Origin: a virus
Lineage: Duplodnaviria > Caudoviricetes
DNA length: 60,119 nucleotides
Reading direction: 5' to 3' (one strand)
IMG/VR virus record: IMGVR_UViG_3300025132_000038
Span: 1 to 60,119 of that record
Shown here: positions 1,345 to 56,987 of the stretch, piece by piece
Position numbering within the stretch: position 1 is the first letter of the stretch
How the letters are laid out: every line of letters begins with the position of its first letter
Translations under genes and position numbers: made by a program
Notes under the pieces: generated by a model
The model's input: the letters and a program-made list of their open reading frames with translations, nothing else
Databases searched by the model: none
Told to the model about the DNA's origin: nothing

Positions 1345-1376
1345 TTTGGTATTGTCTAAATTTTGTCTTATATTTG
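1345..1376 (+). promoter_or_regulatory. Bacteroidota-type promoter (-33 TTTG / -7 TATATTTG)
   Basis: TTTG 1345-1348, 20-nt spacer, TATATTTG 1369-1376, upstream of ATG 1438. Confidence 0.75.
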
Positions 1377-1437: not shown

Positions 1438-2574
1438 ATGTGTGTTATAATAGTTAAACAACAAAAAGAGAAAAAAGTATCCAAAGAGATATTAAAAACA
1501 TCAAGCAGAATTAACCCTCACGGATTGGGGGTTGTATGGTTAGATACATTTGAAGTATCTTATCACAAATCAAAAGAGTATAAAATTCTTGACACAACTA
1601 GACCTTATATTGCTCATTTTCGTTATGCAACAATAGGTAAAGTAAATAGAGCTAATACTCATCCTTTTATATGTGGCGATAATTCTGATGAATTATTAAT
1701 GATGAATGGTAGTATATATGGATTAGGAAATTCTAAAACGTGTGATACTAAAGTTCTTGCACAGAATTTAGGTAAGACTTCACGTCATACGTGGAAAAAA
1801 CAACTATCCGAGTATGATTGTAGATTCACTACAATTAATACTAGAACACGTACCTTTCAAATGTATAATAGAGAATTGTGGACAAAGAAAAACGGAGTTT
1901 GGTTTAGTAAAGACAATGTTATACAAGACAATTTGGTTGCAGTGTATGGAACATTAAAGAAAAATTACTCAAACTATAATCACTATTTACGTAGTTCTAA
2001 ATATGTAGGTAGTGGAGAAACACAAGACCGATACCCTTTATTAATAGAAAGCCTGCCGTTTGTGGTAAACAAAAAAGGAGTAGGTCATAATGTAGTTGTG
2101 GATGTGTTTAAAGTTTCTAACACCAAATTAGCAGACCTAGATAAACTAGAGGGACATCCACGTTGGTACAAAAGAGAAATCATACCTATTAAATTAAAAA
2201 GTGGTAAGGTTGTTAATTGTTGGGTATATTTCAACGATAAAGCTATAAACAAAAACACCACGTTTCACAAAACATATACTCAGTCGTATTTAGGTTATAC
2301 ATCAAATTGGAGAAATAATTGGTTAAGGTTTGATAATGACACGGCCATTGACACGTTCCGTGAGGATGAAATTTTACGAGAGGATGAGGTTGTGGAAACA
2401 AAACCCTTTTGTGTAGGTTGCTACAACGATTTAAAGTTTGACGGCTTTTCTAACTATCATTGTAGTAGTTGCGATAGTTGGTTTACTGAATCTGAAATAT
2501 TGCAAGACCACTTTGTTGAGAGGTCAGTGGATAGAATTATGGAGGGGAGTATGGATAATGAAGACACCATTTAG
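1438..2574 (+). CDS. Class II glutamine amidotransferase fused to a gamma-glutamylcyclotransferase (GGCT/AIG2-like) domain and a C-terminal Zn ribbon
   Basis: N-terminal MC, NPHGLG, HFRYATIG, NTHPF, MNG; then VYGTLK...LDKLEGHP.WY; CVGC...CSSC. Confidence 0.85.
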   Translation: MCVIIVKQQKEKKVSKEILKTSSRINPHGLGVVWLDTFEVSYHKSKEYKILDTTRPYIAHFRYATIGKVNRANTHPFICGDNSDELLMMNGSIYGLGNSKTCDTKVLAQNLGKTSRHTWKKQLSEYDCRFTTINTRTRTFQMYNRELWTKKNGVWFSKDNVIQDNLVAVYGTLKKNYSNYNHYLRSSKYVGSGETQDRYPLLIESLPFVVNKKGVGHNVVVDVFKVSNTKLADLDKLEGHPRWYKREIIPIKLKSGKVVNCWVYFNDKAINKNTTFHKTYTQSYLGYTSNWRNNWLRFDNDTAIDTFREDEILREDEVVETKPFCVGCYNDLKFDGFSNYHCSSCDSWFTESEILQDHFVERSVDRIMEGSMDNEDTI

Positions 2575-2734
2575 TATGAGGTTTGAATGTAAGTATTGTT
2601 ATCGCAATATGACTCATTATGTACTTATGCAACTTGAAGGTAAGTTGACTAAAACAGAAGTGGAGAACATGTGCGATTGCAAAAAGAAAAAAAAGGATAT
2701 AAGTAAATTAAAATATAACGGAAATAAAAATTAA
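2558..2734 (+). CDS. Small Cys-rich hypothetical protein (likely start 2558, MKTPF)
   Basis: ATG overlapping the end of the upstream gene; CKYC and CDC. Confidence 0.5.
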   Translation: MKTPFSMRFECKYCYRNMTHYVLMQLEGKLTKTEVENMCDCKKKKKDISKLKYNGNKN

Positions 2735-2739
2735 AAATT

Positions 2740-2886
2740 ATGAATAATTATAAAACCTATTTAATAGATATGATAATGGCCTTAGAGGGAAACACCAGTA
2801 TTGAGTATCACGTGAGTTTACTAACCTACTCTATAAACGAGTTGGTAGAAATTAAAGACGAGAAGTTTAACCAAAAATTAAAATAA
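2740..2886 (+). CDS. Small hypothetical protein, 48 aa (not in ORF track)
   Basis: AAAAATTATG start context; MNNYKTYLIDMIMALEG... Confidence 0.55.
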   Translation: MNNYKTYLIDMIMALEGNTSIEYHVSLLTYSINELVEIKDEKFNQKLK

Positions 2887-2907
2887 AATTAATAAAAACA
2901 ATAAGTT

Positions 2908-3219
2908 ATGAACACAAACACATTAAATAAACATTTAGAAAATAAATCAACACAAGAAGTAACTAAAATGATTACAGAGATATTAGACATCATTGATAAA
3001 TATGATAAGGAATATAATTTAGAACACGAAAGTTTTTATCTATTACAAATAAATAAAAAGGAAAGATATAGTAAAGAGAAAATAGTTTATCAAGATAAAT
3101 TATTTAAAATAAGGGACATAAGAGATATGTTAAGAAATATGTTTAAAGATAGATATTTTAATAGAATACTTAAAAGAAGAACACAAGACTTGTTAAATAA
3201 AGTTGAATTATTAGATTAA
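2908..3219 (+). CDS. Hypothetical protein
   Basis: 103-aa ORF in the early gene array with A-rich leader. Confidence 0.7.
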   Translation: MNTNTLNKHLENKSTQEVTKMITEILDIIDKYDKEYNLEHESFYLLQINKKERYSKEKIVYQDKLFKIRDIRDMLRNMFKDRYFNRILKRRTQDLLNKVELLD

Positions 3220-3225
3220 AAAATT

Positions 3226-3384
3226 ATGAAAAATAAAGTAAATCAAGTAAATAAAGAAATAGCAATAGAATGTTTAAAGTCTATGTTAGATTGGAGTGAT
3301 AGAATAGGCACGGAAGAAAGACAAGAGATAGAGTTTGTATTGGATATGCTAACGAGAAAAGAAAATTTAATAAAAAATAAATAA
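3226..3384 (+). CDS. Small hypothetical protein, 52 aa (not in ORF track)
   Basis: AAAAAATTATG start; fills the gap between neighbours. Confidence 0.55.
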   Translation: MKNKVNQVNKEIAIECLKSMLDWSDRIGTEERQEIEFVLDMLTRKENLIKNK

Positions 3385-3391
3385 TAAAATT

Positions 3392-3757
3392 ATGGAAAAA
3401 GAAACAAGATATTATATATGGGATAATGACTTACATCAAAGGTGGGGACAAATTGATTACATTATAAGGAATGATAAAGTTTATTATCTTGAGACGGGCG
3501 AGTATGTTGACTTGACAATGTTGTTACAAGATTGGGCTTTAAGTAAACCTGAGGAAGAATGGGGGGAGTGGTATAATGATGATGAAGGGAATTACTTAGG
3601 AGAAGACTATAAGTTTGAGGACTATATAAAGAGTTTGTCTAATAAAGACATAATACATGAATTGTTTGCGTGTAGTTATGAGGTTAGACAAATTATAGAT
3701 ATTGAACTTGATACAGATTCAATATGGAAATTAAAAAATTTAATTAAACCAAAATAA
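3392..3757 (+). CDS. Hypothetical acidic protein
   Basis: 121-aa ORF preceded by AATAAAATTATG. Confidence 0.75.
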   Translation: MEKETRYYIWDNDLHQRWGQIDYIIRNDKVYYLETGEYVDLTMLLQDWALSKPEEEWGEWYNDDEGNYLGEDYKFEDYIKSLSNKDIIHELFACSYEVRQIIDIELDTDSIWKLKNLIKPK

Positions 3758-3765
3758 ATAAAATT

Positions 3766-3894
3766 ATGGAAAAGAGAAATTTAATCTTATATGTTTTAAA
3801 AGAAGACATAAAACAACAATTAGAAGAATTTGAATTAGGTGGTATTGATGTATGGGAATTAATTAAAAGAATAGAAACAATAGTAAATAAATAA
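3766..3894 (+). CDS. Small hypothetical protein, 42 aa (not in ORF track)
   Basis: AAATAAATAAAATTATGGAAAAG junction motif. Confidence 0.55.
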   Translation: MEKRNLILYVLKEDIKQQLEEFELGGIDVWELIKRIETIVNK

Positions 3895-3898
3895 AATT

Positions 3899-4069
3899 AT
3901 GGAAAAGAAAATTGACAATTATATAGAGTGGTATAGAGTAGATTGCTCTGACCCTCACGGAGAATTAAAATGGTTAATAGATTTACTATTAAATAGTGAA
4001 CATACAGAAGATATGGAACAAGTATTAAATGATACTTACGAATTATATAAATCAAATTATACTCAATAA
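3899..4069 (+). CDS. Small hypothetical protein, 56 aa (not in ORF track)
   Basis: Same junction motif; MEKKIDNYIEWYRVDC... Confidence 0.55.
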   Translation: MEKKIDNYIEWYRVDCSDPHGELKWLIDLLLNSEHTEDMEQVLNDTYELYKSNYTQ

Positions 4070-4073
4070 AATT

Positions 4074-4400
4074 ATGAAAACAAGAAACGATTTAGAATAC
4101 GCAAATTCTCAACCAAATGAGAACGAATTAGAAAAAGAAAGATTAGTAACAATATCAAATAGAAGTGTATATCATAAATACGCAGAGGTAACTATACCTA
4201 TACCCAAACGTATCAAAAAAGAGGATGTGGCCGATTGGTTATTTGAAAATGAAAACTTATACACAGATGATTTAGACCAACGATTACATGAATCAAAGTA
4301 TGAGTTTGGGTTTGGATTGGGGGAAGGCATGGATGAAAAAGATGAAGAAAGTGAAACGAGGTACGATATAGAGGGAGAAAAATATGGGGGACACCTATAA
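4074..4400 (+). CDS. Hypothetical acidic protein (likely start 4074, MKTRND)
   Basis: AATAAAATTATG context; ends YGGHL immediately before the ribozyme. Confidence 0.7.
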   Translation: MKTRNDLEYANSQPNENELEKERLVTISNRSVYHKYAEVTIPIPKRIKKEDVADWLFENENLYTDDLDQRLHESKYEFGFGLGEGMDEKDEESETRYDIEGEKYGGHL

Positions 4401-4460
4401 GTCTCCGTCTACGAGTTATTTCTCGTACTGATGAGTTCACGTAGAACGAAACGGAAACTT
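4399..4460 (+). ncRNA. Type III hammerhead ribozyme
   Basis: GUC cleavage triplet 4407-4409; stem I UACGAG/CUCGUA; core CUGAUGA 4428-4434; stem II GUUC/GAAC; GAAA 4448-4451; stem III AAGUCUCCG/CGGAAACUU with one mismatch. Confidence 0.9.
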
Positions 4461-4476
4461 TAAAAAATTAAATAAA

Positions 4477-4707
4477 ATGAAAGAATTAAAAAAAATGATT
4501 AAGATTGCTTTTAAAAGTGCTTACGATAGATTAAAATTATTAGTGTTATTAGTTATGACTCTAGGTTCATTAGGAGGAGGGATATATTGCGTAGCTATTA
4601 TGCTAGACAAATGTGGTTGGAACATACCTTTGTTTTTATTAGGTTGCGTTGGTATTTGGTTTGGGATTGGGATGATAGATATGTTTAGAGACACTTTTAA
4701 CAGATAA
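4477..4707 (+). CDS. Small membrane protein (2 TM)
   Basis: Two hydrophobic segments. Confidence 0.7.
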   Translation: MKELKKMIKIAFKSAYDRLKLLVLLVMTLGSLGGGIYCVAIMLDKCGWNIPLFLLGCVGIWFGIGMIDMFRDTFNR

Positions 4708-4744: not shown

Positions 4745-5134
4745 ATGGGAAGGTATTATTCAGGCGACATAGACGGAAAATTTTGGTTCGCTATTCAAAG
4801 TTCAAATTGTGCTGATAGATTTGGTTCAACGGGTCAAACCCCAAACTATTTAGATTATTGGTTTGATGAGAGTCATTTAGAGAATATTAATAATGAGTTA
4901 TTAGAAATAGAAAAAAATTTAGGAGAAAACCTTAAATTATTAAACGAGTTCTTTAACCTTAATAATGGGTATAATAATCAAATGATAACCGAGTTCTACA
5001 AAGAAAAGGGCAAAACGATAGGAGAAGGAGATATTAAACATTTATTAGAGGAGTATGCAGACTTGTCCTTAGGCAAAGAGATAAGGGATTGCGTTAAAGA
5101 AAACGGAGAATGTAACTTTACGGCAGAGTTGTAA
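4745..5134 (+). CDS. Conserved-looking phage hypothetical protein
   Basis: MGRYYSGDIDGKFWFAIQSS N-terminus; followed by a terminator. Confidence 0.75.
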   Translation: MGRYYSGDIDGKFWFAIQSSNCADRFGSTGQTPNYLDYWFDESHLENINNELLEIEKNLGENLKLLNEFFNLNNGYNNQMITEFYKEKGKTIGEGDIKHLLEEYADLSLGKEIRDCVKENGECNFTAEL

Positions 5135-5157: not shown

Positions 5158-5187
5158 AAAAAGGGGGACGTGTTGTCCCCTTTTTTT
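5158..5187 (+). terminator. Intrinsic (possibly bidirectional) terminator
   Basis: A5-GGGGGAC-GTGTT-GTCCCC-T7. Confidence 0.8.
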
Positions 5188-11046: not shown

Positions 11047-11292
11047 ATGAATTGGAGTTTACACAGAGCAATGCTCAACTCTTATTATGTAATCATTAGA
11101 GGGTATGACCCCTACCTAATGATGTCAAAAGGAGGGGGTTTTTTTGCTCACGACCCCACTAGTGATTTAGAAAAAGAAGACGTGGAGGGTGTGTTAACAT
11201 ACTTTGAGGAGATTGAAGATTATATAAAGTGCCAAGAGATAAATAGTTTTATAAAAACACAATGGAATTTAGGGAATATCAAAAAGAAATAA
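11047..11292 (+). CDS. Hypothetical protein
   Basis: 81-aa ORF; YFEEIEDYIKC is a UVR-like motif. Confidence 0.65.
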   Translation: MNWSLHRAMLNSYYVIIRGYDPYLMMSKGGGFFAHDPTSDLEKEDVEGVLTYFEEIEDYIKCQEINSFIKTQWNLGNIKKK

Positions 11293-12491
11293 TAGACAAA
11301 AGCGTAGGAGTATTGCTAAAGTACAACTTTGTTTATCTAGCTATGGAGGTTAGAACGGGAAAGACATTAACAAGTTTGGGAATAGCTCAAAGTATGTTTA
11401 TGAACAACGTATTATTTATAACAAAAAAGAAAGCTATTAGCTCTATAGAAAGCGATTATAAATTACTCTCACCTAAATATAAGCTTATTGTCATCAACTA
11501 TGAATCACTTCACAAGATACCTAATTTAAAATGGGATATGGTTATTTGTGACGAGTCTCATAGTATGGGGGCGTTTCCTAAACCTAATAAAAGAGCAAAA
11601 GCCGTAAAAGATATTATACTCAAAACCCGTGCCAAAGTCATATTATTATCAGGAACTCCTACCCCAGAATCATACAGCCAAATATATCACCAAGTATATG
11701 GTATAACAAAAAACCCATTTTATGAGTGTGTAAACTTTTATAAGTTTGCCCATAAGTACGTTAAAATAAAAGAGAAAAAAATAAATGGTTTGTTTATTAG
11801 AGATTATTCGCATGGGCTAGAGTCTATACTTGAAAAAATGAAACCATACACTATAAACTTTTCCCAAAAAGAGGCAGGGTTTAAAACAACGATTAAAGAA
11901 AATGTTTTACATGTACCCATGAAAGAAGTAACTTATGATGTAGCAAGTAAATTGAAGAAAAATAGGGTAGTAGAAGGAGAGGAAGAAGTTATATTAGCAG
12001 ACACGCCTGTTAAATTAATGATGAAACTACATCAGTTGTATTCAGGAACAATAAAATTTGAAAGCGGAAATAAAATGGTGTTAGATTATAGTAAAGCTCA
12101 GTTTATAAAACAAAGGTTTGTTAACCAAAAAATAGCTATATTTTATAAGTTTACAGCCGAGTTGGAGGCTTTGAAAAGTGTTTTTGAGGACAATTTAACC
12201 ACGGAACTGAGTGTCTTTAAAGATACACCTAAAAGTATCGCCTTACAAATCGTGAGTGGCAGGGAAGGAATATCTTTAAAAGAGGCTAAGCATATAATAT
12301 ATTATAATATTGACTTTAGTGCTACGAGTTATTGGCAAAGTAGAGATAGAATGACAACCCAGAATAGATTAAAAAATAGTATATATTGGATTTTCTCCGA
12401 AGGGGGTATAGAAGATGATATATATAAAGCAGTAACGAAGAAGAAAGACTATACCGTCCGCCACTTCAAAAAGGATTTATTATCTTTGTAA
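11262..12491 (+). CDS. SF2 (SNF2-like) helicase
   Basis: REYQ, VRTGKT, DESH, LSGTP, GREGISL, QSRDR. Confidence 0.9.
   Translation: MEFREYQKEIIDKSVGVLLKYNFVYLAMEVRTGKTLTSLGIAQSMFMNNVLFITKKKAISSIESDYKLLSPKYKLIVINYESLHKIPNLKWDMVICDESHSMGAFPKPNKRAKAVKDIILKTRAKVILLSGTPTPESYSQIYHQVYGITKNPFYECVNFYKFAHKYVKIKEKKINGLFIRDYSHGLESILEKMKPYTINFSQKEAGFKTTIKENVLHVPMKEVTYDVASKLKKNRVVEGEEEVILADTPVKLMMKLHQLYSGTIKFESGNKMVLDYSKAQFIKQRFVNQKIAIFYKFTAELEALKSVFEDNLTTELSVFKDTPKSIALQIVSGREGISLKEAKHIIYYNIDFSATSYWQSRDRMTTQNRLKNSIYWIFSEGGIEDDIYKAVTKKKDYTVRHFKKDLLSL
12481..12488 (+). promoter_or_regulatory. Possible Bacteroidota -7 element
   Basis: TATCTTTG 5 nt before ATG 12494. Confidence 0.45.
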
Positions 12492-14780: not shown

Positions 14781-17700
14781 TTACTTCTTCCTATTATCAA
14801 TCCTTCTTTGATGCCCTGGAGACCTCTTTCTAGTAGTATTTTTTTTCTTCGATTTTTTATTTTTTCGTACTGAATTAGGTCGGTAAGATGGACTAACACC
14901 TATCACGTCATAGAAAGCTTCTTCACTAATATCCCCCTGCTCAATTAGCGTCTTGATAGGAGCATCTATACCTACCCCATCACCCTCTACACTTAATTCA
15001 AAGAATGGGTCAAATTGGAAACCTACATAAAGCTCGGCTAAACTTTCTATTGTTTTAGCTCCTTTTTGTAAAGTAGATAAATCTTCATCCGCCAAGTACC
15101 TAACCATTTCTGTTGTAACTCTATTAAAAGGATTTACCCCTTCTTCAATTTGTCGCGGGTTTTCTCCCGCCATTTTTAATATTGCGTATTCTAACGAACC
15201 ACCTATGAATGGTACTTGGGTAATAAGGTTCATTCCATACATTGACCTTTTCATTTGTTTTAATACATCTTCTTTATCCTCATCTTCCCCTTTAAAATAT
15301 TTAAACATATTTGCCATTGCAATAAATAAAACGTTAGCCACACCTAAATTTAAAACCACCGCTCTTATAGCATCTGAATCCACACTTCCTTTAGATGTTG
15401 CTCTCATTATGTTAGTCATACCCATATACACTTTATTCATTTGTAAAAACAGAGTACTGCCAAACATGGTAAAGAATCTATTTTTAAAATCAGTGCTCAT
15501 TTGGAGGGGAATTTTTTCTGTTCTTCCCCTTGTTTGTTGCGTAAGTTCGTAACTTTCAAAATTTTCTAAAGCCACGTCAGGGTCTACTCCTGCCCTAATA
15601 TCTGCATTATAATTAGCCATATAACCCATCACCCCCATAACATCTCCTAATACTGTAGGTGAGCTCATGGCGAATTTAAAAGCTCTCAGGAAATTACCCA
15701 TCCTTGTTTCTTTTTGACTCACAGTTCGGTCTGTTGGACTACCAGAAACTAAACCATATAAATCCCCCTCTAAACCTTTTTTAACCCTGTCTCTAAATAC
15801 CGGACTTAATTTATAAGCTTTTTGTAGTTGTTTAGGTAGTGTAAGCATTACATAACCCACATCAGCCATAAAGGCTAGTAGTTCTACCGGGGTAGCAGCA
15901 ACGTCTTTAATTTTAGTTAGACGGCTTTGTTGGTCTTTAGGCGCTCTACTTCTCATAAATTTATAATCTTCAAACGCATTAATAAAAGAAGAAGCTTGCT
16001 TAGGAATTTGCATTAACCTAAAAGCTAAAGCATAAGAGGTAAATTTAGTCATAATCTTTTCAATAAACCCTTGTTGAGAATCATTAAGAGAGTCAGGGTT
16101 AACAGCAAAGTTTATTGCTCTTTTTACTGCACGGTCTAAACCAGAGGCCTCTAACAATACTTTTACCGAAGGTGTGTTAACAATCGCTGTTAAATTTTTA
16201 ACACCTAAAGCGTAAGCCTTATAATGTTCCATGCTATCTATATGATTAGTTAGTGTATCTAAAAAGCCCGGGTCTAAATTAACATCACCCGTAACATCCG
16301 CTCTTTCTTTTAACGCAGAGTGTGTTTCATCACTAAATATACTGCCAAAATTCCCCTCTATTAATAATTTTTCTGTAGCTTTCTGCCTACTAATTGTTTG
16401 TGTTGGAAAGTAGTTTTCTACATAATCTAAGTTAACATCATTAGATTCTTTATAAACTTCGTTAATTGTTGGAAAGTATTCATTGCTTAAGTATTCAACC
16501 ACTTTGTCTGCAAACTCTATAGGTTGAGGTCCTAATATTTTTTTAATCTCGTCTATTTTCTCAGGCGTAAAGCCTTGCTTTTCTAGTTTTGCTCTTTGCG
16601 TCTCGTTCTTACTTAAAGAATATATACGTAATAATTGGTCTCCACTATATCTTTCTGTTTTACCTTTTATTTTTAAATCAACTAGACCAATGTAAAGTTG
16701 TTTTCGTATTTGTTTATAACCTTTAGTTACACCTGGAATAGAATTCGCTATTTCATTAAACTTTTTATTTACCTTTTCAATACCCAACATTTGATTTCGG
16801 TGCATCCTTCTTAAGGGTTTATATATATTGTTGTTAAAAAAGTTTTTGTTCTGTAACCCCCTGTCTAGAAGTTGAGTCAATGTTCCTAAGTGAGATAAGT
16901 GTTCTTTAAAAAATGAACGTATACCTATTATACTATCAAACTTTAAATTTTTAACGTAAGATTTTAAACCCTTTAACAGCTTACCTTTTTTAAACATAGC
17001 CCTAATACTTAACTTATCTTGACGTAGTTGATTTTTATTTTTAGGAATTTTGTTCCCATCTTTGTCCGTAGTAAATAATTCAGGATATGTTTCCTCGATT
17101 TGTTTGGTTGCTTGTTCACTTAATTTCTCCTGCTTAGCCGCTCTTTCTAATCGTTTTAATTGTAATCTTCCAATAGACTCTGCTCTAGCTTCTTCTAGTA
17201 TTTTTAATTTAGCTTGTACTTCTTCCATACTTGCGGTCATAACATCCCCCACAGTATCAAAAGCTTTTAGTTTATTAAGCATAGATTGCTCATTATCAGT
17301 AAGGGCTTCAGGGTTATTAAGAGCTTTTGTTATTAATTCCGCTTCGGTTATTTGAAGTTGTTTTAATATATTCTCAGCGCTTATGTCTTCTTTTAATTTT
17401 TGAATCTCCGCGTTTCGGGTGTCATCATTTTGAATTAAAGCTACCTTTAAAACTTTTTTTACTTCTTTAAAAAACTCACGCCCCAGCGCATCTAAACCTT
17501 TAGTAACTTTCCTACCACCCTTGGTTACAGTAGCGGCAGCTTTTTTTCTTACTAATTTTTCAATCTTTTGAATTAGCTCGTTTTTTATTTTTGTTTTTTG
17601 TTTATCTATAATTTTTACAACCTCCTCTGTTTTAGCTATGTAATTTTCAGCGGTGAGGTCAGTAATTCTTTTTAATAAAGAGTTGATTTGAGTTTGAGAA

Positions 17701-20700
17701 TAAGAGCTTGATTTCGGAAGGGTTCTTCTTATAATACCTCTTAATTGGTTTTGCAAGTTCTTTATATCCTTAACTGCTAGTTTTTTATTCTTTATAGTGT
17801 TTCTAATGTCACTTATTTCTTTTTGAATAGTTGGGTTTGTTCTTATTTCTAAACTCCTATCTAAAGCCACTTGCATAGCCATTTGGGTGTCCACATTTTG
17901 TTTTTGGAACAACTCACTCTCTTTTAATAATCTTTGAGCTTCTGCCCTAACATCAGAATAAGTTTTAACTCGTCTTGCTCTTTTTTTACCCTCAGGTGTA
18001 CTGTAAGCATAATCATTTAGTTTCTTTTTAATTTTACTAAACAACCTTAAACCTTCAATGGCACCCCCTTCTATGTTAGTAAACTCCGTTGGTAGTGTAA
18101 CATTTTCATCCATCTTTATTCTCATAGCCTCATTTATATCTGTAGCTTTAAATCCTCTTGATTGTAAAACACTTTTAATAGATGCGTCTGATATACCTTG
18201 TTGCCTTCCTTTGTTTACTATATCAATAATGGAATCTGTAGAACTAAACATTACCTCAGGATTCTTTAATTGTATAAGCTGCTTGTCGGTAAGTTTTATT
18301 TCTTTACCAGAAAATATATCGGCTAGTGCTGTTCCTAAAAACTTATCAAGCGTCATGTTTTCAATTTCACTTGTAGTTAAATCTTTAGACATTTTAAACT
18401 GCGTTTTAATGTACGTCCACATTCCCTGCAGCCAATTTTTAAATTTAGAAAGTAAACTAGCATCTGCTATATCCACCCCTTTATTTGCTATCATAATAGC
18501 CATAGTTTCATTAACAGCCTTAGTTGCGTCACCATTAAACTTTTTTAATTGTCTTTTATAAAGCGCTGTTTGCTGAACTAATTCTGCCCCTTTTCTATAA
18601 ATTTGCTGACCCTTTTCCGTTGTTTGTAAATAATTAGTCCAGACATGACCAAACTCATGAATTGATGTATCAAAAAGTTGAGATTGAGTATTGTGAACTT
18701 CAGGGTTTATCCATATATCCCCATCTACAGTTACACCATAATACACCTGCCCATCTTTAGTGTATTGCCTTACATCATCTCTACTAATTACATTATTAAA
18801 AGCTTCTTGGGTAGAGCTTATATTAACACTTGGGAATGACTTATTCATAAATGCCAAGAGTTGTGTATTATTATTAATAGGGTCTCCCTCTGTTACTAAA
18901 CCACTTATAATTCGGGATATTTCAGATGGAGTAAGAGCACCATAAGTCGCAAAAGCTTGATTTAAAGCATCCACCAACATTTTCTCATCTCTAAAACTAA
19001 ACTGAGTTTCACCCATAACCTTTCTTCCTCTTGAGATAGTACTTTCTTTTTTAGCAACAGTAGGTTTTCTTCTACTTGCTTTACCTTTTTCTTCTAAAGC
19101 GGACCATGCTCTTTCAGCTTTCTTAGAAGTATAATTTTTATCTGACTTCAACGGTTGATTATAAGTTTCTTGAACATAATCATTGGCGCTTTCATAAAGT
19201 TGTTGACCCAACCCTAAGCCTTGTAAGGCGGGGTGTATTTCAGAAATAGTAACTGTTCCATTTTCCTTACCCATTTGAGCACCCTCTCTACCTGCTATCA
19301 TTTCTAACCTTCCTAATAACTGACCGTCTGCGTGCAAAAACACCCTCGCTTTATTGGCAGGTACTTGAAAAAAAGACCTTTGTTCTGGAGTTAAATTCTT
19401 TCCATCTATCACCGCGTAACTTACCTCAACGTCTCCATTTTTTATTCGAGTTATTAATTGCTCATCTATTTCAAACATACCCTTACCTTGGTCTCTAGTA
19501 TCCACATTAACTGTAGAAATACTTTCTGTAAACATCATGCCTCTTGCTCCCCTTCCTCCACCATCTACTATCTTGTTAACCAAATTAACAAAAGCGTTTG
19601 TTATACCACCTTCCACGGGAGCTCGTTTAATTTTGTTTTGTTGATTTTTAGATGCGCTTTTGAAATTTACAAAATCTATATCATTATCTATCTTCCCCTC
19701 GGTTTTAAAGTCTACTTTACTTTTAGTGTCCTCTTTTAAAGTAGCCTCTAAATCTATTGCACCCTGCATATCTGATTCAATTTCCGCTATACGCTCCGTA
19801 TTCTCTTTAAAAAGTTGCTGCTGAAAGGGTGTTAGTTTTCTATTATTCATATTTTTAGAAGCAACCTCAGCTAACAACCCATCTAATCTTTGTTGGTCTA
19901 GGTCGTTATTAGTATATTTTATCTTATCATTACGTGTGGCTTTGATAGGAGTAGGTATACTAGGTATCTCGGTTTCTACCCCAATCGTTTCCTCTTGGAC
20001 CGGAGTAGTTTGGCTTTTAGTGGTAGTTTCTTGTTGGGTGTCTCCTTTTCCCACTGTTGCGCCATCTGCGGTTTGTTTTTCCACATCCAGGCTCTTTGTT
20101 TTTGACTCTTGAATGGCATTTATTTTATCATTTAAAAGGGTTAATACTTTATCATCATTTCTTACATTTATATCTAACTCCTCTACTTCTACACTACTTA
20201 GTCTAGCTAATCTTCTCATAAAGGATTTTTTACTATACTTTTTTCCATCTATAGTATAGGAAGATTTTTTCATACCAGGGGCTTTCACGTCGATTAAAGC
20301 ATCCACATTTATTCCACCTTCAACTATTTCACCTGTACGGACCATTTCAGAAAGCTCGGCGTCTATCTCACTAATAGTTTTAGAGTTTATTTGTTTTAGG
20401 TTTGGAGTTCTACTTAAATCTTTTTTAGCACTTAACAGCTCCATCGCTCTAGCTATTTTTTTGTTAGAAGCATTTTTACCTAAAAGTTCTTTAGCGTTTC
20501 TACGGTTTCCTACGTTTTCTTGAATTTGTTGATTTTGTTCATCACTAATCTTATTTAGATTATTCATGTTAGTTGACCATTGAGATATTCTTGAGTCACT
20601 AACATTTTCATTAGCCATATAATTAAAATCTAATAAGTTGTTCGCAATATCAGTATTACTGTTATTAACTTTGTCCATAAACATATTTACGGCCATATGA

Positions 20701-23387
20701 GAAGTGTTGTTACCCAAACCTCCCCATGATTCTAATAATATTTCTTTACTATTTATTTCTTGTCCTGCTGTTACTTGAGCTAAATACTCACCAAAACCTT
20801 CTGCTCCCGGGTCAAAAATTATTCTTTCTCCGGTCATAGCTAACATTTTTGTTGGCGTACTAGCTGTTTTACCCACTTTAAACACCCTTCCTGCTAATCC
20901 TGCAGAGAAAAAGTCTACTAGTGCTATTGGAATACCTCTTTTTAGACCCATTTCTCTACCTTGTGCCCACACTTCTTCGTCTGCAAAAGCTTTGGCAACG
21001 TCATCAGGGTTTGTTAAATCATATCCCGCCTCACCCATAGATTCCATTATTGAGTTGGTGTATTCTAAAACAAAACCACTTAAAGCAAATCCTGTTCTAA
21101 AACCCCAAAGTCCTCCGGTTATTGCTGCGGCAGGAACAGTTACAGCTTCTTCAGGCGTTCCGGCTTGAGGCCCCATTTGTCCCGCTGCTAAAGCGAGACC
21201 CGCCCCTGTACCCGCTCCTACAGCGGTAGTGGTAGGAATAATCACCAAACCATATGGGAGCATTTGGGTAAGACTCTCACTCATTAAGCCTAAACCATTA
21301 ACTAATAACAAATCAACCCTCATACCGCTTTCTCCTAATAAATATTTTTTAGATTCACCCCACCCTTCGGCACGCTGAAATCTATACATAAGTTTGGATT
21401 GACGGGGGTCTACATTAGATAAATATTCAGCGACCCTTGCTTGTAATTCTTTATCATTAGGGTCTTTCATTCCCAACTCCATTTGTATTATAAGTTTACC
21501 CGCCTGTCCTCTATTCCACGCGTTCTTTAAAGCTATCGTCCAACCTTTCATCCCTTCTACATATTCCTGTGTTATATTTTTATCATTCTTTCTATCATAA
21601 AAAGTTTTAGAGTTTTGATATTTATATGCAGCAAATTGTTGAGTTAATTCACCCACATCTCTTGAGGCAATAAGTTCTTGTTTAAGTTTTTGTTCTTTTT
21701 CGGTTTTAGGAACAACATATTCTAAGTCAGTCAAAGGAACGCCAAAGTTTTTTAATGACATAACATTCATTTCGTCTACGTATTGAAGTGCTTGTTCATT
21801 TAGTTTTGCTGCCTCTTTCGCTTTATACTCAAAGTTACGATGCAGTTTTAAATCTAACTCATCTCTTAAATCTTCGGCCTCATCACTCATGGCCGACTGC
21901 TGAAGAATACTATATTGTTCTTCTAATGCTTCTAGCTTTTCTTCCCAATCAGAGTATAAACTATTCTTACCGTCCGTTCCTATCCTAACATATTCAGGGA
22001 ATTTTATAGCTAAATCAGTAGGTATATTTCTAGTATTTTTACCATATTTAGGCATATACTCCTCTATAAAAGCTATGTCCTCTTTTACCTTTTCATAATT
22101 CTCAAACATTTCTTGTTCTGCAAAATAATCTTTACCATGTTCTCGGTAGAATTCTTGACCAAAGATTTCAGGGGAGCTAACGTTTTTCCAGGCCCCGTTT
22201 GCAAATTTTTCCGCTTCTTCCTCTGTGTCAAAGTAATAAACCTCTCCTCTTGTTCTAGCAAACTCTAAAGCATCTTCCCACTCGTCTGAACCAAACTCAG
22301 TCCACCTTTCAGGCCATGCACTCTGTATATCAGGATTAGTAGGGAAAAGGGTAGGAAAAGCCACAAATTTACCATCTTCTTCAGCATACGACATTAGGTG
22401 GGTTGATACACTCCCATCTCCGTTGTGCCTTCCTATCTCTCTACTTTGTTGTGCTTGAATGGATTGAGAGATAAAATCTGAAGGTCTCTCTGTTCTAGTT
22501 TCGGGTGACGTGGAATGTTTAATAATAAAGTCTTGTAACTTTTTACTTAGAGCAGGGTCACTATCATCTACCTCAATCTCAATAGAATGTAAACCATCTA
22601 ACGTCCTTACGTGTACTTTATCGCCCCACCCCATAGTTGAAAAACTAAAACCGTATTTTGAAAATTTTTCAGTTAAGTAATTAACGACATCATCTTCTTT
22701 TTGTTTGGTTAATTCAGGGTCTATAGTAACTATATCCTCTTGAAATTCTATATTATTATTTATTAAATCATTATAAGCGTTTTGTCGTTGTAGTTTTTCA
22801 GCCTCTACACGTTGTTGTTTTTGTAGCTCTATTTTATCCGCCTGCTCTCTTTTTGCTCTTTCTTCAGGTGTATTCCATTTTTCAGCCGCTTCTAGTTTTT
22901 TTTGTTGTTTTTCTTGCTGTTCTTGAAAATCATCAAAACGTTTTACAGGCATATTTAGTGCATCCGTCCCTCTCTGAGTCGCGTCCATGGGTGCGGCATC
23001 AGGGTTTATATTGTCCTGTGATTGATTTTTAACATCCTCAAAAGTAAAGTTAGGGTTCGAGTTCGAGTCTTTGTTTTGTAGTGCTTTTAGTTTATCTACA
23101 AATTCAGACTGACTAATCGGCTGAAATTCCGATGAACCATCTTCCGAAGGAGAATCCGTAACGCTGACGTCTGGGTTTTTTTTTTCAGGTAAGGTTTCAA
23201 CACCCATTAACTTAGCAAAGTCTTCCATTTCCTTAGTGTACCCATTATCTTTAGCGTTTTCAAACATAGTTCTTAACGCATCAAAATCTTCTCCCATTAA
23301 CTTTAGAAAATCAGACTTACTCTTACGGTAACCTTCATCTATGGCTACCTTATACATTATATCTACTGCTTCTTCATTCATAGGCAT
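14781..23387 (-). CDS. Giant virion/ejection polyvalent protein with GNAT-like and zincin (HExxH) domains
   Basis: 2868 aa at the end of the ejection module; LQGLGLGQQLY...SD...AW..L (GNAT); IWINP...HEFGHVW; hydrophobic Gly/Ala segments. Confidence 0.75.
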   Translation of the reverse strand: MPMNEEAVDIMYKVAIDEGYRKSKSDFLKLMGEDFDALRTMFENAKDNGYTKEMEDFAKLMGVETLPEKKNPDVSVTDSPSEDGSSEFQPISQSEFVDKLKALQNKDSNSNPNFTFEDVKNQSQDNINPDAAPMDATQRGTDALNMPVKRFDDFQEQQEKQQKKLEAAEKWNTPEERAKREQADKIELQKQQRVEAEKLQRQNAYNDLINNNIEFQEDIVTIDPELTKQKEDDVVNYLTEKFSKYGFSFSTMGWGDKVHVRTLDGLHSIEIEVDDSDPALSKKLQDFIIKHSTSPETRTERPSDFISQSIQAQQSREIGRHNGDGSVSTHLMSYAEEDGKFVAFPTLFPTNPDIQSAWPERWTEFGSDEWEDALEFARTRGEVYYFDTEEEAEKFANGAWKNVSSPEIFGQEFYREHGKDYFAEQEMFENYEKVKEDIAFIEEYMPKYGKNTRNIPTDLAIKFPEYVRIGTDGKNSLYSDWEEKLEALEEQYSILQQSAMSDEAEDLRDELDLKLHRNFEYKAKEAAKLNEQALQYVDEMNVMSLKNFGVPLTDLEYVVPKTEKEQKLKQELIASRDVGELTQQFAAYKYQNSKTFYDRKNDKNITQEYVEGMKGWTIALKNAWNRGQAGKLIIQMELGMKDPNDKELQARVAEYLSNVDPRQSKLMYRFQRAEGWGESKKYLLGESGMRVDLLLVNGLGLMSESLTQMLPYGLVIIPTTTAVGAGTGAGLALAAGQMGPQAGTPEEAVTVPAAAITGGLWGFRTGFALSGFVLEYTNSIMESMGEAGYDLTNPDDVAKAFADEEVWAQGREMGLKRGIPIALVDFFSAGLAGRVFKVGKTASTPTKMLAMTGERIIFDPGAEGFGEYLAQVTAGQEINSKEILLESWGGLGNNTSHMAVNMFMDKVNNSNTDIANNLLDFNYMANENVSDSRISQWSTNMNNLNKISDEQNQQIQENVGNRRNAKELLGKNASNKKIARAMELLSAKKDLSRTPNLKQINSKTISEIDAELSEMVRTGEIVEGGINVDALIDVKAPGMKKSSYTIDGKKYSKKSFMRRLARLSSVEVEELDINVRNDDKVLTLLNDKINAIQESKTKSLDVEKQTADGATVGKGDTQQETTTKSQTTPVQEETIGVETEIPSIPTPIKATRNDKIKYTNNDLDQQRLDGLLAEVASKNMNNRKLTPFQQQLFKENTERIAEIESDMQGAIDLEATLKEDTKSKVDFKTEGKIDNDIDFVNFKSASKNQQNKIKRAPVEGGITNAFVNLVNKIVDGGGRGARGMMFTESISTVNVDTRDQGKGMFEIDEQLITRIKNGDVEVSYAVIDGKNLTPEQRSFFQVPANKARVFLHADGQLLGRLEMIAGREGAQMGKENGTVTISEIHPALQGLGLGQQLYESANDYVQETYNQPLKSDKNYTSKKAERAWSALEEKGKASRRKPTVAKKESTISRGRKVMGETQFSFRDEKMLVDALNQAFATYGALTPSEISRIISGLVTEGDPINNNTQLLAFMNKSFPSVNISSTQEAFNNVISRDDVRQYTKDGQVYYGVTVDGDIWINPEVHNTQSQLFDTSIHEFGHVWTNYLQTTEKGQQIYRKGAELVQQTALYKRQLKKFNGDATKAVNETMAIMIANKGVDIADASLLSKFKNWLQGMWTYIKTQFKMSKDLTTSEIENMTLDKFLGTALADIFSGKEIKLTDKQLIQLKNPEVMFSSTDSIIDIVNKGRQQGISDASIKSVLQSRGFKATDINEAMRIKMDENVTLPTEFTNIEGGAIEGLRLFSKIKKKLNDYAYSTPEGKKRARRVKTYSDVRAEAQRLLKESELFQKQNVDTQMAMQVALDRSLEIRTNPTIQKEISDIRNTIKNKKLAVKDIKNLQNQLRGIIRRTLPKSSSYSQTQINSLLKRITDLTAENYIAKTEEVVKIIDKQKTKIKNELIQKIEKLVRKKAAATVTKGGRKVTKGLDALGREFFKEVKKVLKVALIQNDDTRNAEIQKLKEDISAENILKQLQITEAELITKALNNPEALTDNEQSMLNKLKAFDTVGDVMTASMEEVQAKLKILEEARAESIGRLQLKRLERAAKQEKLSEQATKQIEETYPELFTTDKDGNKIPKNKNQLRQDKLSIRAMFKKGKLLKGLKSYVKNLKFDSIIGIRSFFKEHLSHLGTLTQLLDRGLQNKNFFNNNIYKPLRRMHRNQMLGIEKVNKKFNEIANSIPGVTKGYKQIRKQLYIGLVDLKIKGKTERYSGDQLLRIYSLSKNETQRAKLEKQGFTPEKIDEIKKILGPQPIEFADKVVEYLSNEYFPTINEVYKESNDVNLDYVENYFPTQTISRQKATEKLLIEGNFGSIFSDETHSALKERADVTGDVNLDPGFLDTLTNHIDSMEHYKAYALGVKNLTAIVNTPSVKVLLEASGLDRAVKRAINFAVNPDSLNDSQQGFIEKIMTKFTSYALAFRLMQIPKQASSFINAFEDYKFMRSRAPKDQQSRLTKIKDVAATPVELLAFMADVGYVMLTLPKQLQKAYKLSPVFRDRVKKGLEGDLYGLVSGSPTDRTVSQKETRMGNFLRAFKFAMSSPTVLGDVMGVMGYMANYNADIRAGVDPDVALENFESYELTQQTRGRTEKIPLQMSTDFKNRFFTMFGSTLFLQMNKVYMGMTNIMRATSKGSVDSDAIRAVVLNLGVANVLFIAMANMFKYFKGEDEDKEDVLKQMKRSMYGMNLITQVPFIGGSLEYAILKMAGENPRQIEEGVNPFNRVTTEMVRYLADEDLSTLQKGAKTIESLAELYVGFQFDPFFELSVEGDGVGIDAPIKTLIEQGDISEEAFYDVIGVSPSYRPNSVRKNKKSKKKNTTRKRSPGHQRRIDNRKK

Positions 23388-55154: not shown

Positions 55155-55377
55155 TAGCTACTACTTCATTATTAAGTAACATAGTATGTCCTGACTGTTG
55201 GTCATAATATATCTCGTCTCCCTTTTTTATTATCTCCACATCTGTTCCCACATTTAATACTTTACCTTTTCTGTATCGAAGATTAGATGTTTCTTCTCCT
55301 GATAAAAGAAGTCCTGACTTTGTAGTTACTTCTTCATCTATGGGTTTTATTATAATATATGTTCCTATTGCTTGCAT
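55120..55377 (-). CDS. groES: Co-chaperonin GroES (Cpn10)
   Basis: IIIKP..E..TKSGLLL...GKV..VG..V..IK.GD.I.Y. Confidence 0.9.
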   Translation of the reverse strand: MQAIGTYIIIKPIDEEVTTKSGLLLSGEETSNLRYRKGKVLNVGTDVEIIKKGDEIYYDQQSGHTMLLNNEVVAIIRQMNVVVVL

Positions 55378-56987
55378 GTTGTATCGTATGAACGTGCCAT
55401 TGTAATAATAGCGTTAGTACTTAGTATTGTATTGGCAACTGATATAGCGTTACTTAAAGCGCTTACAGTAACTTTGGTAGGGTCTATTACCCCTAAATCA
55501 ATCATGTTTCCTTTTTTTTCAGTAACTACATTGTATCCTTCGCCTTTTTCAAGGTTAGATGATAAATAAACATCATTTATATTTAAGCCTGCATTTTCAA
55601 GAATTTGTTTTAATGGAGATAATAAAGATTCTAATAAAATTGCGTAAGCAATTTTTTCGGCATCAGATTTTCCACTTTTTAATTCTGAAGAAATATTCAT
55701 CAAAGCTACCCCACTACCTGGAAGTATCCCGTCTGACAAAGCAGAACGAACCGCACATACAGCATCATCTACTCTATCATATAACTCTTTTTGTTCTAAA
55801 TCAGTATTACCACCTACATATATAACTCCTACTCCGCCTGTCAATGAGGCTATACGAGATAATATAAACTCTCTATCAGCTTTTGTTTTAGCTCTTTTAT
55901 GTGCATCTTTTAATTCCCCTACTCTTACATTTAATAATTCTTGATGTTCCTCATCTTTTGGTGAACAAAGGACGACAGTGGAGTCTCTCCCAACTATCAC
56001 CTTGGACGCTCTCCCTAAATCGGAGAAGTTTATAATACTCAAATCGTCCCCTGTTTTCTCAGAAAAATACGTTGCACCTACTGACATTGCTATGTCTTGC
56101 ATAAGCTCATGTGTTTTCCAACCAAATGACGGCGGTGGTATAATACACACCTTCAATCCTCTTTTCATAACATTAGCCGCTAATGTTTGTATAACATTTT
56201 GTGAACAAGGAGCTATAATAAGAAGTTTTTTGCTTTCTTGAATAATGGGTTTTAGAATATTCTCTATGTTTAATACGTTATTTATTTCAGCATCAGATAC
56301 TAAAATGTTAACATTTTCTAATATACACTCATCTTTCTTTTGATTATTAACAAATAGATTACTTGAATAACCTCTTTCTATTTTTATTCCTTCAGTTGTT
56401 TCTGAATACGTCTCCGAGTTTTGTGACTTCTCCACAGTCACTATTCCGTTTTCTCCAACCGTATTATATGTATCTGAAATAATACTACCAACAAACTCAT
56501 CATTGTTAGCTGAAATAGTGGCAACATTATTTAAAGTACTCTTTTCCACTTTTACACTATCTTTTTTTAACCTTTCAATAATATCAATAGTATAACTAGA
56601 TAAAGCACGTATAACTTCAGTTACACTTACATTAGGGTTTTTACTTAATAGTCTTGTGGTGTTCTTTACTATAGATTCAGTTAAAACAATAGCTGTGGTA
56701 GTTCCATCACCTGCTAAAGTAGCTGTTCTTTCCGCAGCTTGTTTCATTATTCTAACTGCTAAATTTTCAACAGGGTCAAGAAGCTCAACCGATTTAGCAA
56801 CCGTAACTCCATCTTTAGTTACTGTTATACTAGCGGTATGTTCTGGTGATTCAATAAGAACTGTGTTACCTCGGGGACCGAGAGTACTTTTTACTGCGTT
56901 AGCAATTTTAGTAATTCCTTTGATTAACTTTACTCTACCTTCTGTACCGAAGTCGAGCTCCTTGGGGATATATCCTGTATTATTCAT
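55365..56987 (-). CDS. groEL: Chaperonin GroEL (Cpn60)
   Basis: TLGPRG, TKDGVTVAK, AGDGTTTA, ATISAN, GI.PG.G, GVIDP.KV. Confidence 0.95.
   Translation of the reverse strand: MNNTGYIPKELDFGTEGRVKLIKGITKIANAVKSTLGPRGNTVLIESPEHTASITVTKDGVTVAKSVELLDPVENLAVRIMKQAAERTATLAGDGTTTAIVLTESIVKNTTRLLSKNPNVSVTEVIRALSSYTIDIIERLKKDSVKVEKSTLNNVATISANNDEFVGSIISDTYNTVGENGIVTVEKSQNSETYSETTEGIKIERGYSSNLFVNNQKKDECILENVNILVSDAEINNVLNIENILKPIIQESKKLLIIAPCSQNVIQTLAANVMKRGLKVCIIPPPSFGWKTHELMQDIAMSVGATYFSEKTGDDLSIINFSDLGRASKVIVGRDSTVVLCSPKDEEHQELLNVRVGELKDAHKRAKTKADREFILSRIASLTGGVGVIYVGGNTDLEQKELYDRVDDAVCAVRSALSDGILPGSGVALMNISSELKSGKSDAEKIAYAILLESLLSPLKQILENAGLNINDVYLSSNLEKGEGYNVVTEKKGNMIDLGVIDPTKVTVSALSNAISVANTILSTNAIITMARSYDTTCKQ

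Follow-up and report, generated by a model that had tools for sequence, protein, structure and literature searches.

The 60,119-nucleotide DNA considered here, the whole of IMG/VR virus record IMGVR_UViG_3300025132_000038 (Duplodnaviria; Caudoviricetes) and referred to below as the window, is the genome of a podophage of Flavobacteriia-type hosts, about 60 kilobases (kb) long and estimated to be 99% complete. Between two co-oriented early genes it carries an element, at 4402 to 4457, that on the evidence of its sequence is well supported as a genuine type III hammerhead ribozyme (coordinates throughout are window positions, on the + strand unless stated otherwise). The motif is complete and has statistical support, it belongs to a class of hammerheads that hold a conserved position ahead of start codons in related phages, and at the same locus in relatives it is interchanged with other elements that make a 5′ end. 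From this we infer that the RNA is cut in vivo and that the cut affects message stability or translation. The role that we favor, and that we judge to be reasonably probable, is self-cutting of the early polycistronic mRNA, independently of the host, which would give the two-gene cassette beginning at 4477 and 4745 a 5′ end of its own.

The hammerhead motif and its statistical support

A preliminary description of this DNA, made from the letters alone, had stated that every core nucleotide of a hammerhead is present, and direct reading bears this out: the cleavage triplet GUC lies at 4407 to 4409 (G4407-U4408-C4409, with C4409 as the H of position 17), CUGAUGA lies at 4428 to 4434, and GAAA lies at 4448 to 4451. 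The conserved core is complete (C3 U4 G5 A6 N7 G8 A9, G12 A13 A14, A15.1-U16.1, and H17), the A15.1-U16.1 pair being formed by A4451 and U4408. Helices I and II are capped by loops, and helix III is open. Stem III consists of 5 base pairs (bp) (4404-4408/4451-4455, its 3′ strand lying with the core GAAA in 4448 to 4455) and is extended, beyond an A-C mismatch, by four further pairs (4399-4402/4457-4460). Stem-loop I (4410 to 4427) has 6 bp (4410-4415/4422-4427) and the loop UUAUUU, and stem-loop II (4435 to 4447) has 4 bp, GUUC/GAAC (4435-4438/4444-4447), around the loop ACGUA and is closed by G4435-C4447, the G10.1-C11.1 pair. Loop I begins with U and loop II ends with A, as the same description had it. 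The limits 4402 and 4457 are those of the Rfam match. Cleavage is predicted between C4409 and U4410, and the coordinates confirm that this is 9 nucleotides (nt) beyond the stop codon of the upstream open reading frame (ORF) and 67 nt ahead of the ATG at 4477. The 21 nt that separate the ribozyme from this ATG (4456 to 4476) form an A/U-rich, unstructured leader without a Shine-Dalgarno sequence.

Comparison with the Rfam Hammerhead_3 model (RF00008), which had been proposed as a check, gave a divided answer. The match covers the full length of the model (positions 1 to 54), with E values of 4.8e-8 on 261 bases, 1.1e-5 when the whole window is searched with all 4227 families, and 2.6e-9 for this family alone, but its 41.6 bits fall under the gathering score of 48.5, and a default Rfam scan of the window lists nothing. 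The gathering score reflects Rfam's seed set, and the E value, together with the score from a model of the class itself (61.3 bits), supports membership in type III. That class model, a covariance model (R2) built from 105 class sequences with the window copy left out, scores the window copy with an E of about 1e-15 and gives no second window match at an E of ≤1; the pattern used to collect the class members came from the window's own core and stem II, and their likeness in that part is due to selection. When a descriptor demanding the core and a minimum of 4 pairs in each stem was run over the window, this site was its single hit, and 300 dinucleotide shuffles yielded no hit; with the minimum lowered to 3 pairs per stem, the shuffles gave 9 hits in 300.

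The hammerhead class and the same locus in relatives

The 20 bases specified by the search pattern belong to the core and to the window's stem II, nothing else being fixed, and the pattern matched 102 stretches of the viral contigs that were its target. With the window included, there are 105 matches, of which 83 are type III hammerheads and 17 are type I-like, all of these complete, and 5 fit neither the type III nor the type I descriptor. Further copies with other stem II sequences occur at the same loci (129 descriptor hits, 106 distinct sequences). In an alignment of 106 distinct type III sequences, six of the seven columns of CUGAUGA are invariant, with N7 being U in 99 sequences, and GAAAC is invariant throughout, while 13 of the 16 helix pairs are changed on both sides. 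Paired cells make up 93% of this alignment, compared with 68% in shuffles and 36 to 46% when the partners are slid, a percentage that is partly built in, given that a pairing descriptor had selected the rows. Loop I opens with U in 103 of the 106 sequences, and loop II closes with A in 104; in two sequences both positions differ, with A and U in their place, a joint swap. This pattern agrees with the conserved loop-loop pair of natural hammerheads presented in PMC6155905. A large part of the class belongs to the clade of the window itself, given that 28 of 50 hammerhead-bearing records tested encode a large terminase (TerL) 73 to 78% identical to that of the window.

The class has a stereotyped layout in related Flavobacteriia podophages of about 60 kb, namely, a hairpin, the type III hammerhead, an A-rich leader of about 20 nt, and an ATG. 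Among 112 nonredundant ribozyme-ORF pairs, the median distance from cut to start is 67 nt (interquartile range, 65 to 73), the same as in the window, and the median distance from stop to cut is 38 nt (interquartile range, 31 to 45), compared with 9 nt in the window. The downstream ORFs are small (median, 77.5 amino acids [aa]) and diverse (69 clusters for the 112 pairs). A hairpin of at least 5 bp ends no more than 8 nt from stem III in 97 of the 112 class members, and across the class the upstream 32 nt have a median folding energy of −12.0 kcal/mol, versus −3.7 kcal/mol for shuffles. The counterpart in the window is a 6-bp hairpin, UAUGGG/CCUAUA (4383 to 4399), directly before stem III and compatible with the hammerhead fold, but it is weak (−5.9 kcal/mol) and overlaps the stop codon. 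Apart from the two conserved positions, the loop bases of the window copy are likewise atypical (1 of 106), so that this copy departs from the class in three ways: its 9-nt stop-to-cut distance, its weak upstream hairpin overlapping the stop, and its unique loops.

A GTGTC...GACAC hairpin is common to 39 of the 112 class members. This near-identical hairpin, GTGTCTTCAAAGACAC, stands ahead of the hammerheads at L112 to L213 (for example, at about 13315 to 13335 of L112) and recurs across many genomes, with several copies in each. Its conservation exceeds what a hairpin needs, which suggests a site for a protein or nuclease.

At the locus itself, DNA homology to relatives that share the upstream gene ends exactly at 4400, and homology to those that share the downstream genes resumes at 4480. 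After the stop codon of the upstream gene, the former have an A/T-rich spacer of about 20 to 35 nt, or none, and then varied genes. On the downstream side, nine metagenome loci encode homologues of the 76-aa protein that begins at 4477. In two of them, L316 and L319 (82% identical in this protein), an orthologous type III hammerhead lies directly before the ATG and scores 65.4 and 68.9 bits, respectively, with R2 and 42.5 and 43.3 bits with Rfam. Relative to the window, these ribozymes differ by one A-U to G-U change in stem I (in L316, A4411 is replaced by G, a wobble that keeps the pair) and in loop bases, with all core positions intact. L316 keeps the window's upstream sequence, whereas L319 has a different upstream gene. 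The leader (4456 to 4476) is conserved with the ribozyme in both and also in L070, where the homologous ribozyme and leader (78% over 63 nt) occupy a different site.

Other members of the same gene family are preceded by something else. L323 and L324 (44% identical) have a canonical type I hammerhead (L323, 221 to 267; L324, 1422 to 1468) with stems of 6, 4, and 9 to 10 bp, the cut of which lies 32 nt before the ATG; it is not reported by Rfam at an E of ≤0.1, the call being made from the descriptor and from the minimum free energy (MFE) structure, which is the hammerhead fold. L317, L318, and L320 to L322, as well as the IMG/VR relatives L002 to L004, which are the closest ones (TerL, 90 to 93% identical), have no hammerhead and carry instead, 27 nt ahead of the ATG, the conserved spacer TTTGGAnTTGTTCAAATTTTGTCTTATATTTG (some of these loci may be the same phages in two collections). 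The 19-base core of this spacer occurs once in the window, at 1358 to 1376 (0.19 expected), following a terminator and a long noncoding stretch; the early operon's first ORF begins 61 nt farther on. The full element, TTTGG.ATTGT..AAATTTTGTCTTATATTTG, is common to the window (1345 to 1376), L002 (about 2705 to 2735), and L317 to L322, and it matches the Bacteroidota promoter form, TTTG followed by TAnnTTTG. By its sequence, 1345 to 1376 is likely the early promoter and the likely start of the early operon, and it is the only element of its kind found upstream of the ribozyme. Homologues of a single gene are thus found behind a type III hammerhead, a type I hammerhead, or a likely promoter, each of them a device that makes an RNA 5′ end just ahead of the start region.

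The distribution of hammerheads across the clade is patchy. The three closest genomes (TerL, 90 to 93% identical) have none by RF00008 or the class model, and five near-complete genomes at about 75% TerL identity have none at an E of ≤0.01 or a weak match only (G035, 17.9 bits). G031 (TerL, 82%) has two hammerheads, and G034 (89% complete; TerL, 75%) has a type I hammerhead scoring 34.3 bits against an Rfam threshold of 34. The G034 copy lies at 1487 to 1535 of L110 (− strand), in the early region. When contigs were sampled via TerL alone, hammerheads were present in 1 of 13 long contigs, which has four copies; this sample consists mostly of short fragments, with only those 13 of its 80 loci coming from contigs long enough to judge. 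Genomes picked with the pattern have 1 to 5 copies, a count biased by that choice, clustered within a few kb on one strand. A descriptor scan of 106 loci found via the two flanking proteins gave a homologous hammerhead in L070 only, a hit in L015 being spurious, and RF00008 run over 50 of these records gave 4 weak matches, none above the cutoff; those in G040 and G048 have a poor stem I. Megablast and blastn searches of the region against a named-phage collection returned no relevant match, the six hits being short A/T-rich stretches. All five cultured Elemovirus records tested carry one copy each, at 46.4 bits with the class model, and four other named phages tested have no class hammerhead.

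Proposed self-processing of the early message and its alternatives

If the element acts as we propose, transcription would run from the promoter-like element near 1376 to the terminator at 5163 to 5187, and the hammerhead, once made, would fold and cut itself after C4409. The upstream fragment (genes 1438 to 4400) would then end in a 2′,3′-cyclic phosphate a few bases past the small hairpin, and the downstream fragment (4410 to about 5187, approximately 780 nt) would begin with a 5′-OH and the compact body of the ribozyme, followed by the unstructured A/U-rich leader, the ATG of the 76-aa membrane protein, and the 129-aa gene. The start region of the cassette would be insulated from the RNA upstream, and no host nuclease or promoter would be needed. 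The anatomy of the operon, with its promoter-like element at 1345 to 1376, no other detected before the ribozyme, and a terminator behind the cassette, fits such a role. So does precedent from other prokaryotic hammerheads, according to PMC3088659: phage-related polycistronic RNAs that contain hammerheads in tandem undergo cleavage both in vitro and in Escherichia coli, and in haloviruses HF1 and HF2 a mapped 5′ end lies within 3 nt of the hammerhead cut, 13 nt before the start codon.

Self-processing of the early mRNA had been put forward in the preliminary description, and it gains from the operon anatomy and from the interchange seen at the locus in relatives, but a predicted competitor hairpin that would hide stem III speaks against it. 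On its own, the 62-mer from 4399 to 4460 is predicted to fold as the hammerhead, at −16.2 kcal/mol (z score, −1.3; 22 of 200 shuffles are as good). The earlier statement that all three stems form thus holds for the isolated element but not for a 111-nt context that includes 30 nt of upstream sequence, where the predicted MFE structure is instead a hairpin spanning 4370 to 4410 in which 4370 to 4378 pair with 4402 to 4410, masking the 5′ half of stem III along with the cleavage site; stem II is rearranged as well.

This competitor is the first of several points that weigh against self-processing. In context, its structure reaches −30.1 kcal/mol, compared with −21.9 kcal/mol for the enforced hammerhead, and the resulting penalty of 8.3 kcal/mol is the largest among 115 class members (median, 1.4 kcal/mol). 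The hammerhead is predicted in context for only 19 of these 115, which makes the folding model a weak guide; its energies are those of a nearest-neighbor model that ignores tertiary contacts and cotranscriptional kinetics. With loops found in only 1 of 106 sequences, fast cleavage at cellular Mg2+, for which hammerheads depend on a tertiary contact between loops I and II, is not assured. The RF00008 score is below the curated gathering score, as described above. The hammerhead is clearly dispensable in the clade, given its absence from the closest three genomes and its presence in only 1 of 13 long contigs. Finally, the upstream element of the relatives is a putative promoter by its likeness to the Bacteroidota consensus, and the loose form TTTG-N17-23-TAnnTTTG is not enriched in the window (4 found versus 4.67 expected).

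A wider reading, possible but held only tentatively, is that promoters and hammerheads of either topology can stand in for one another in this phage clade, each as a cassette creating a discrete 5′ end ahead of an unstructured start region that lacks a Shine-Dalgarno sequence. The job of phage hammerheads would accordingly be that of a "promoter substitute" and start-region insulator for hosts whose translation begins without Shine-Dalgarno pairing, and in the window the cut would also be gated by translation of the upstream ORF through the competitor hairpin.

The competitor could also turn an active ribozyme into a conditional switch, with 4370 to 4410 blocking stem III unless ribosomes on the upstream ORF melt the hairpin, so that cleavage, and with it the release of the downstream message, would depend on translation. 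Because the last codons of that ORF contain the 5′ arm of the hairpin, ribosomes could relieve it; moreover, the cut, 9 nt past the stop where the class median is 38, places the 5′ strand of the ribozyme within reach of a terminating ribosome, and the competitor's energetic advantage is unmatched in the class. The same upstream sequence is kept in L316, but in L319 another upstream sequence precedes the same ribozyme, so that the competitor is not conserved, and most class members keep hairpin and ribozyme apart. The energies also leave out tertiary contacts and cotranscriptional kinetics, and we consider a switch rather unlikely.

Self-processing as we favor it would benefit expression of the cassette, whereas cleavage might also lower expression, either by opening the upstream message to 3′ exonucleases or by marking the 5′-OH RNA for decay, and in this way time or limit the early genes. 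In Bacillus, the product of the glmS ribozyme decays via RNase J1, an analogue of such down-regulation. The chemistry of the ends would be the same under either reading, and the weakness of the window's upstream hairpin (−5.9 kcal/mol against the class median of −12.0 kcal/mol) would leave the upstream fragment poorly protected. On the other hand, the strong hairpin ahead of most class members (97 of 112) and the fixed unstructured leader look like stabilization of both products, and a promoter-like element at the same place in relatives suggests that independent expression of the cassette is needed more, not less. Down-regulation is, in our view, unlikely.

The patchy distribution, with no hammerhead in the closest relatives and 1 to 5 clustered copies in others, raises the question of whether the element is a selfish or recombination-linked module, a conserved patch of about 55 nt that spreads between intergenic sites or promotes the exchange of cassettes and whose cleavage is merely tolerated. 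The exact break in homology at 4400 and its resumption at 4480, the copy and leader of L070 at a different place, and the great diversity of the downstream ORFs (69 clusters for 112 pairs) are all in keeping with this. Selfish DNA, however, would not need an intact catalytic core, compensatory changes in the stems, or a fixed distance to the start, and the occurrence of both type I and type III at the same locus points to selection on activity rather than on sequence; we regard a selfish module as quite unlikely. A chance match or an inactive relic without function, for which the score under the Rfam gathering threshold, the unremarkable fold of the 62-mer (z score, −1.3), and the atypical loops might be cited, is very improbable in the face of the E value of 1.1e-5, the absence of the motif from 300 shuffles, the 61.3 bits with an independent class model, and the retention of the core with only structure-neutral changes in the L316 and L319 orthologues.

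Genome setting, known systems, and significance

The upstream ORF (4029 to 4400; stop codon TAA at 4398 to 4400) encodes 123 aa and the downstream ORF (4477 to 4707) encodes 76 aa; Pfam and PHROGs searches gave no family or function for either. The 76-aa product has two hydrophobic stretches, at about residues 19 to 43 and 46 to 70, in keeping with its earlier designation as a protein with two transmembrane segments. The second ORF of the cassette (4745 to 5134; 129 aa) belongs to phrog_33624, the function of which is not known. Behind it, the cassette ends with an intrinsic terminator-like hairpin, GGGGAC/GUCCCC followed by seven T residues (5163 to 5187), which we read directly from the sequence on the + strand, although a listing of terminators places it on the − strand.

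The + strand genes up to 14780 are early and replication genes (encoding a Sak-like annealing protein, an exonuclease, a primase/helicase, and a helicase), and the portal, terminase, and virion proteins are encoded on the − strand. In TerL, the window shares 75.6% identity with an uncultured podovirus record, 46% with the Elemovirus phages of Flavobacterium, and 33 to 37% with Cellulophaga and Tenacibaculum phages. Start regions in the window are A/U-rich and lack Shine-Dalgarno sequences, which we take to fit Bacteroidota hosts. Ahead of the early operon, a long noncoding stretch (830 to 1340) follows a terminator at 806 to 827 and is a candidate genome end, origin, or regulatory region; in it, a 20-base direct repeat, ATGTATCTTTAAAGAGACAC (840 to 859 and 928 to 947), flanks CA-rich short repeats (CACCAACCCACA...). 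A 2868-aa ORF at 14781 to 23387 (− strand) has no PHROG or Pfam match, and its size and position beside the virion genes recall the ejected giant proteins of podophages. A GroEL-like chaperonin is encoded at 55365 to 56987 (− strand; phrog_5725, E = 3.9e-130). A weak match to a CRISPR repeat model at 12340 to 12375 (25.9 bits, E = 0.76), within the helicase ORF at 11262 to 12491, is probably due to chance.

The window copy agrees with RF00008 (clan CL00010) in its complete core (CUGAUGA, GAAA, and GUC), in the G10.1-C11.1 pair, and in topology, with stems I and II closed and stem III open, but its stem II loop is shorter and its loop I is longer than in the Rfam consensus, and it resides in an operon of a double-stranded DNA phage rather than in a circular RNA replicon. 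The occurrence of hammerheads in some phages, with a function that is unclear, had been mentioned in the preliminary description and agrees with PMC3088659, PMC6155905, and PMC6765202, the latter two being reviews in which the role of phage hammerheads is still an open question. Like the window copy, the hammerheads of Perreault et al. 2011 (PMC3088659) and de la Pena et al. 2017 (PMC6155905) are intergenic, co-oriented with genes, and near phage genes, and like the class described here they often lie several close together, flanking small nonconserved ORFs. The host group differs from that of those cases, however, and the present class has its stereotyped hairpin-hammerhead-leader layout with a 67-nt cut-to-start distance.

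The hammerhead of Elemovirus (Flavobacterium phage vB_FspP_elemo) resembles that of the window in matching the same class model and in having about 20 nt between ribozyme and ATG. This type III copy (NC_062743.1, 19043 to 19098, − strand; L234/L235) is unannotated and uses GUA and CUGAAGA, and, unlike that of the window, it lies not between cistrons but in the leader of the first operon gene, gp61, in a divergent intergenic region. In the early mRNA of T7, a polycistronic transcript is cut between genes at RNase III sites, which leaves hairpins at the new ends; T7, however, relies on a host enzyme and double-stranded sites, whereas the RNA of the window is predicted to cut itself, yielding a 5′-OH and a cyclic phosphate. 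RiboJ, a synthetic type III hammerhead insulator placed before a start region, likewise gives a constant 5′ end whatever lies upstream, but it was engineered from a plant satellite ribozyme and is used behind promoters, whereas the element in the window is natural and lies within an operon.

Intergenic phage hammerheads, in tandem and beside small nonconserved ORFs, are already published (PMC3088659 and PMC6155905). A literature search, judged by title, turned up no report of a hammerhead in a phage of Flavobacteriia. The layout of the class and the swap between hammerhead and promoter-like element may be new, or they and some of the sequences may already be partly catalogued in the supplementary lists of PMC3088659.

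Since hammerheads near phage genes have been known since about 2010 to 2011, the locus leaves knowledge of the ribozyme itself unchanged. It does show that, with the Rfam gathering threshold missing the whole class, routine annotation of such phages hides these ribozymes. Among cultured relatives, Elemovirus has a hammerhead of this class; it grows on Flavobacterium sp. BAL314 and is tractable for work on function, although its TerL is only 46% identical. The locus offers a natural comparison in which one gene stands behind a type III hammerhead (the window, L316, and L319), a type I hammerhead (L323 and L324), or a promoter-like element (L002 to L004), and through which the effect of the cut on the downstream gene can be tested.

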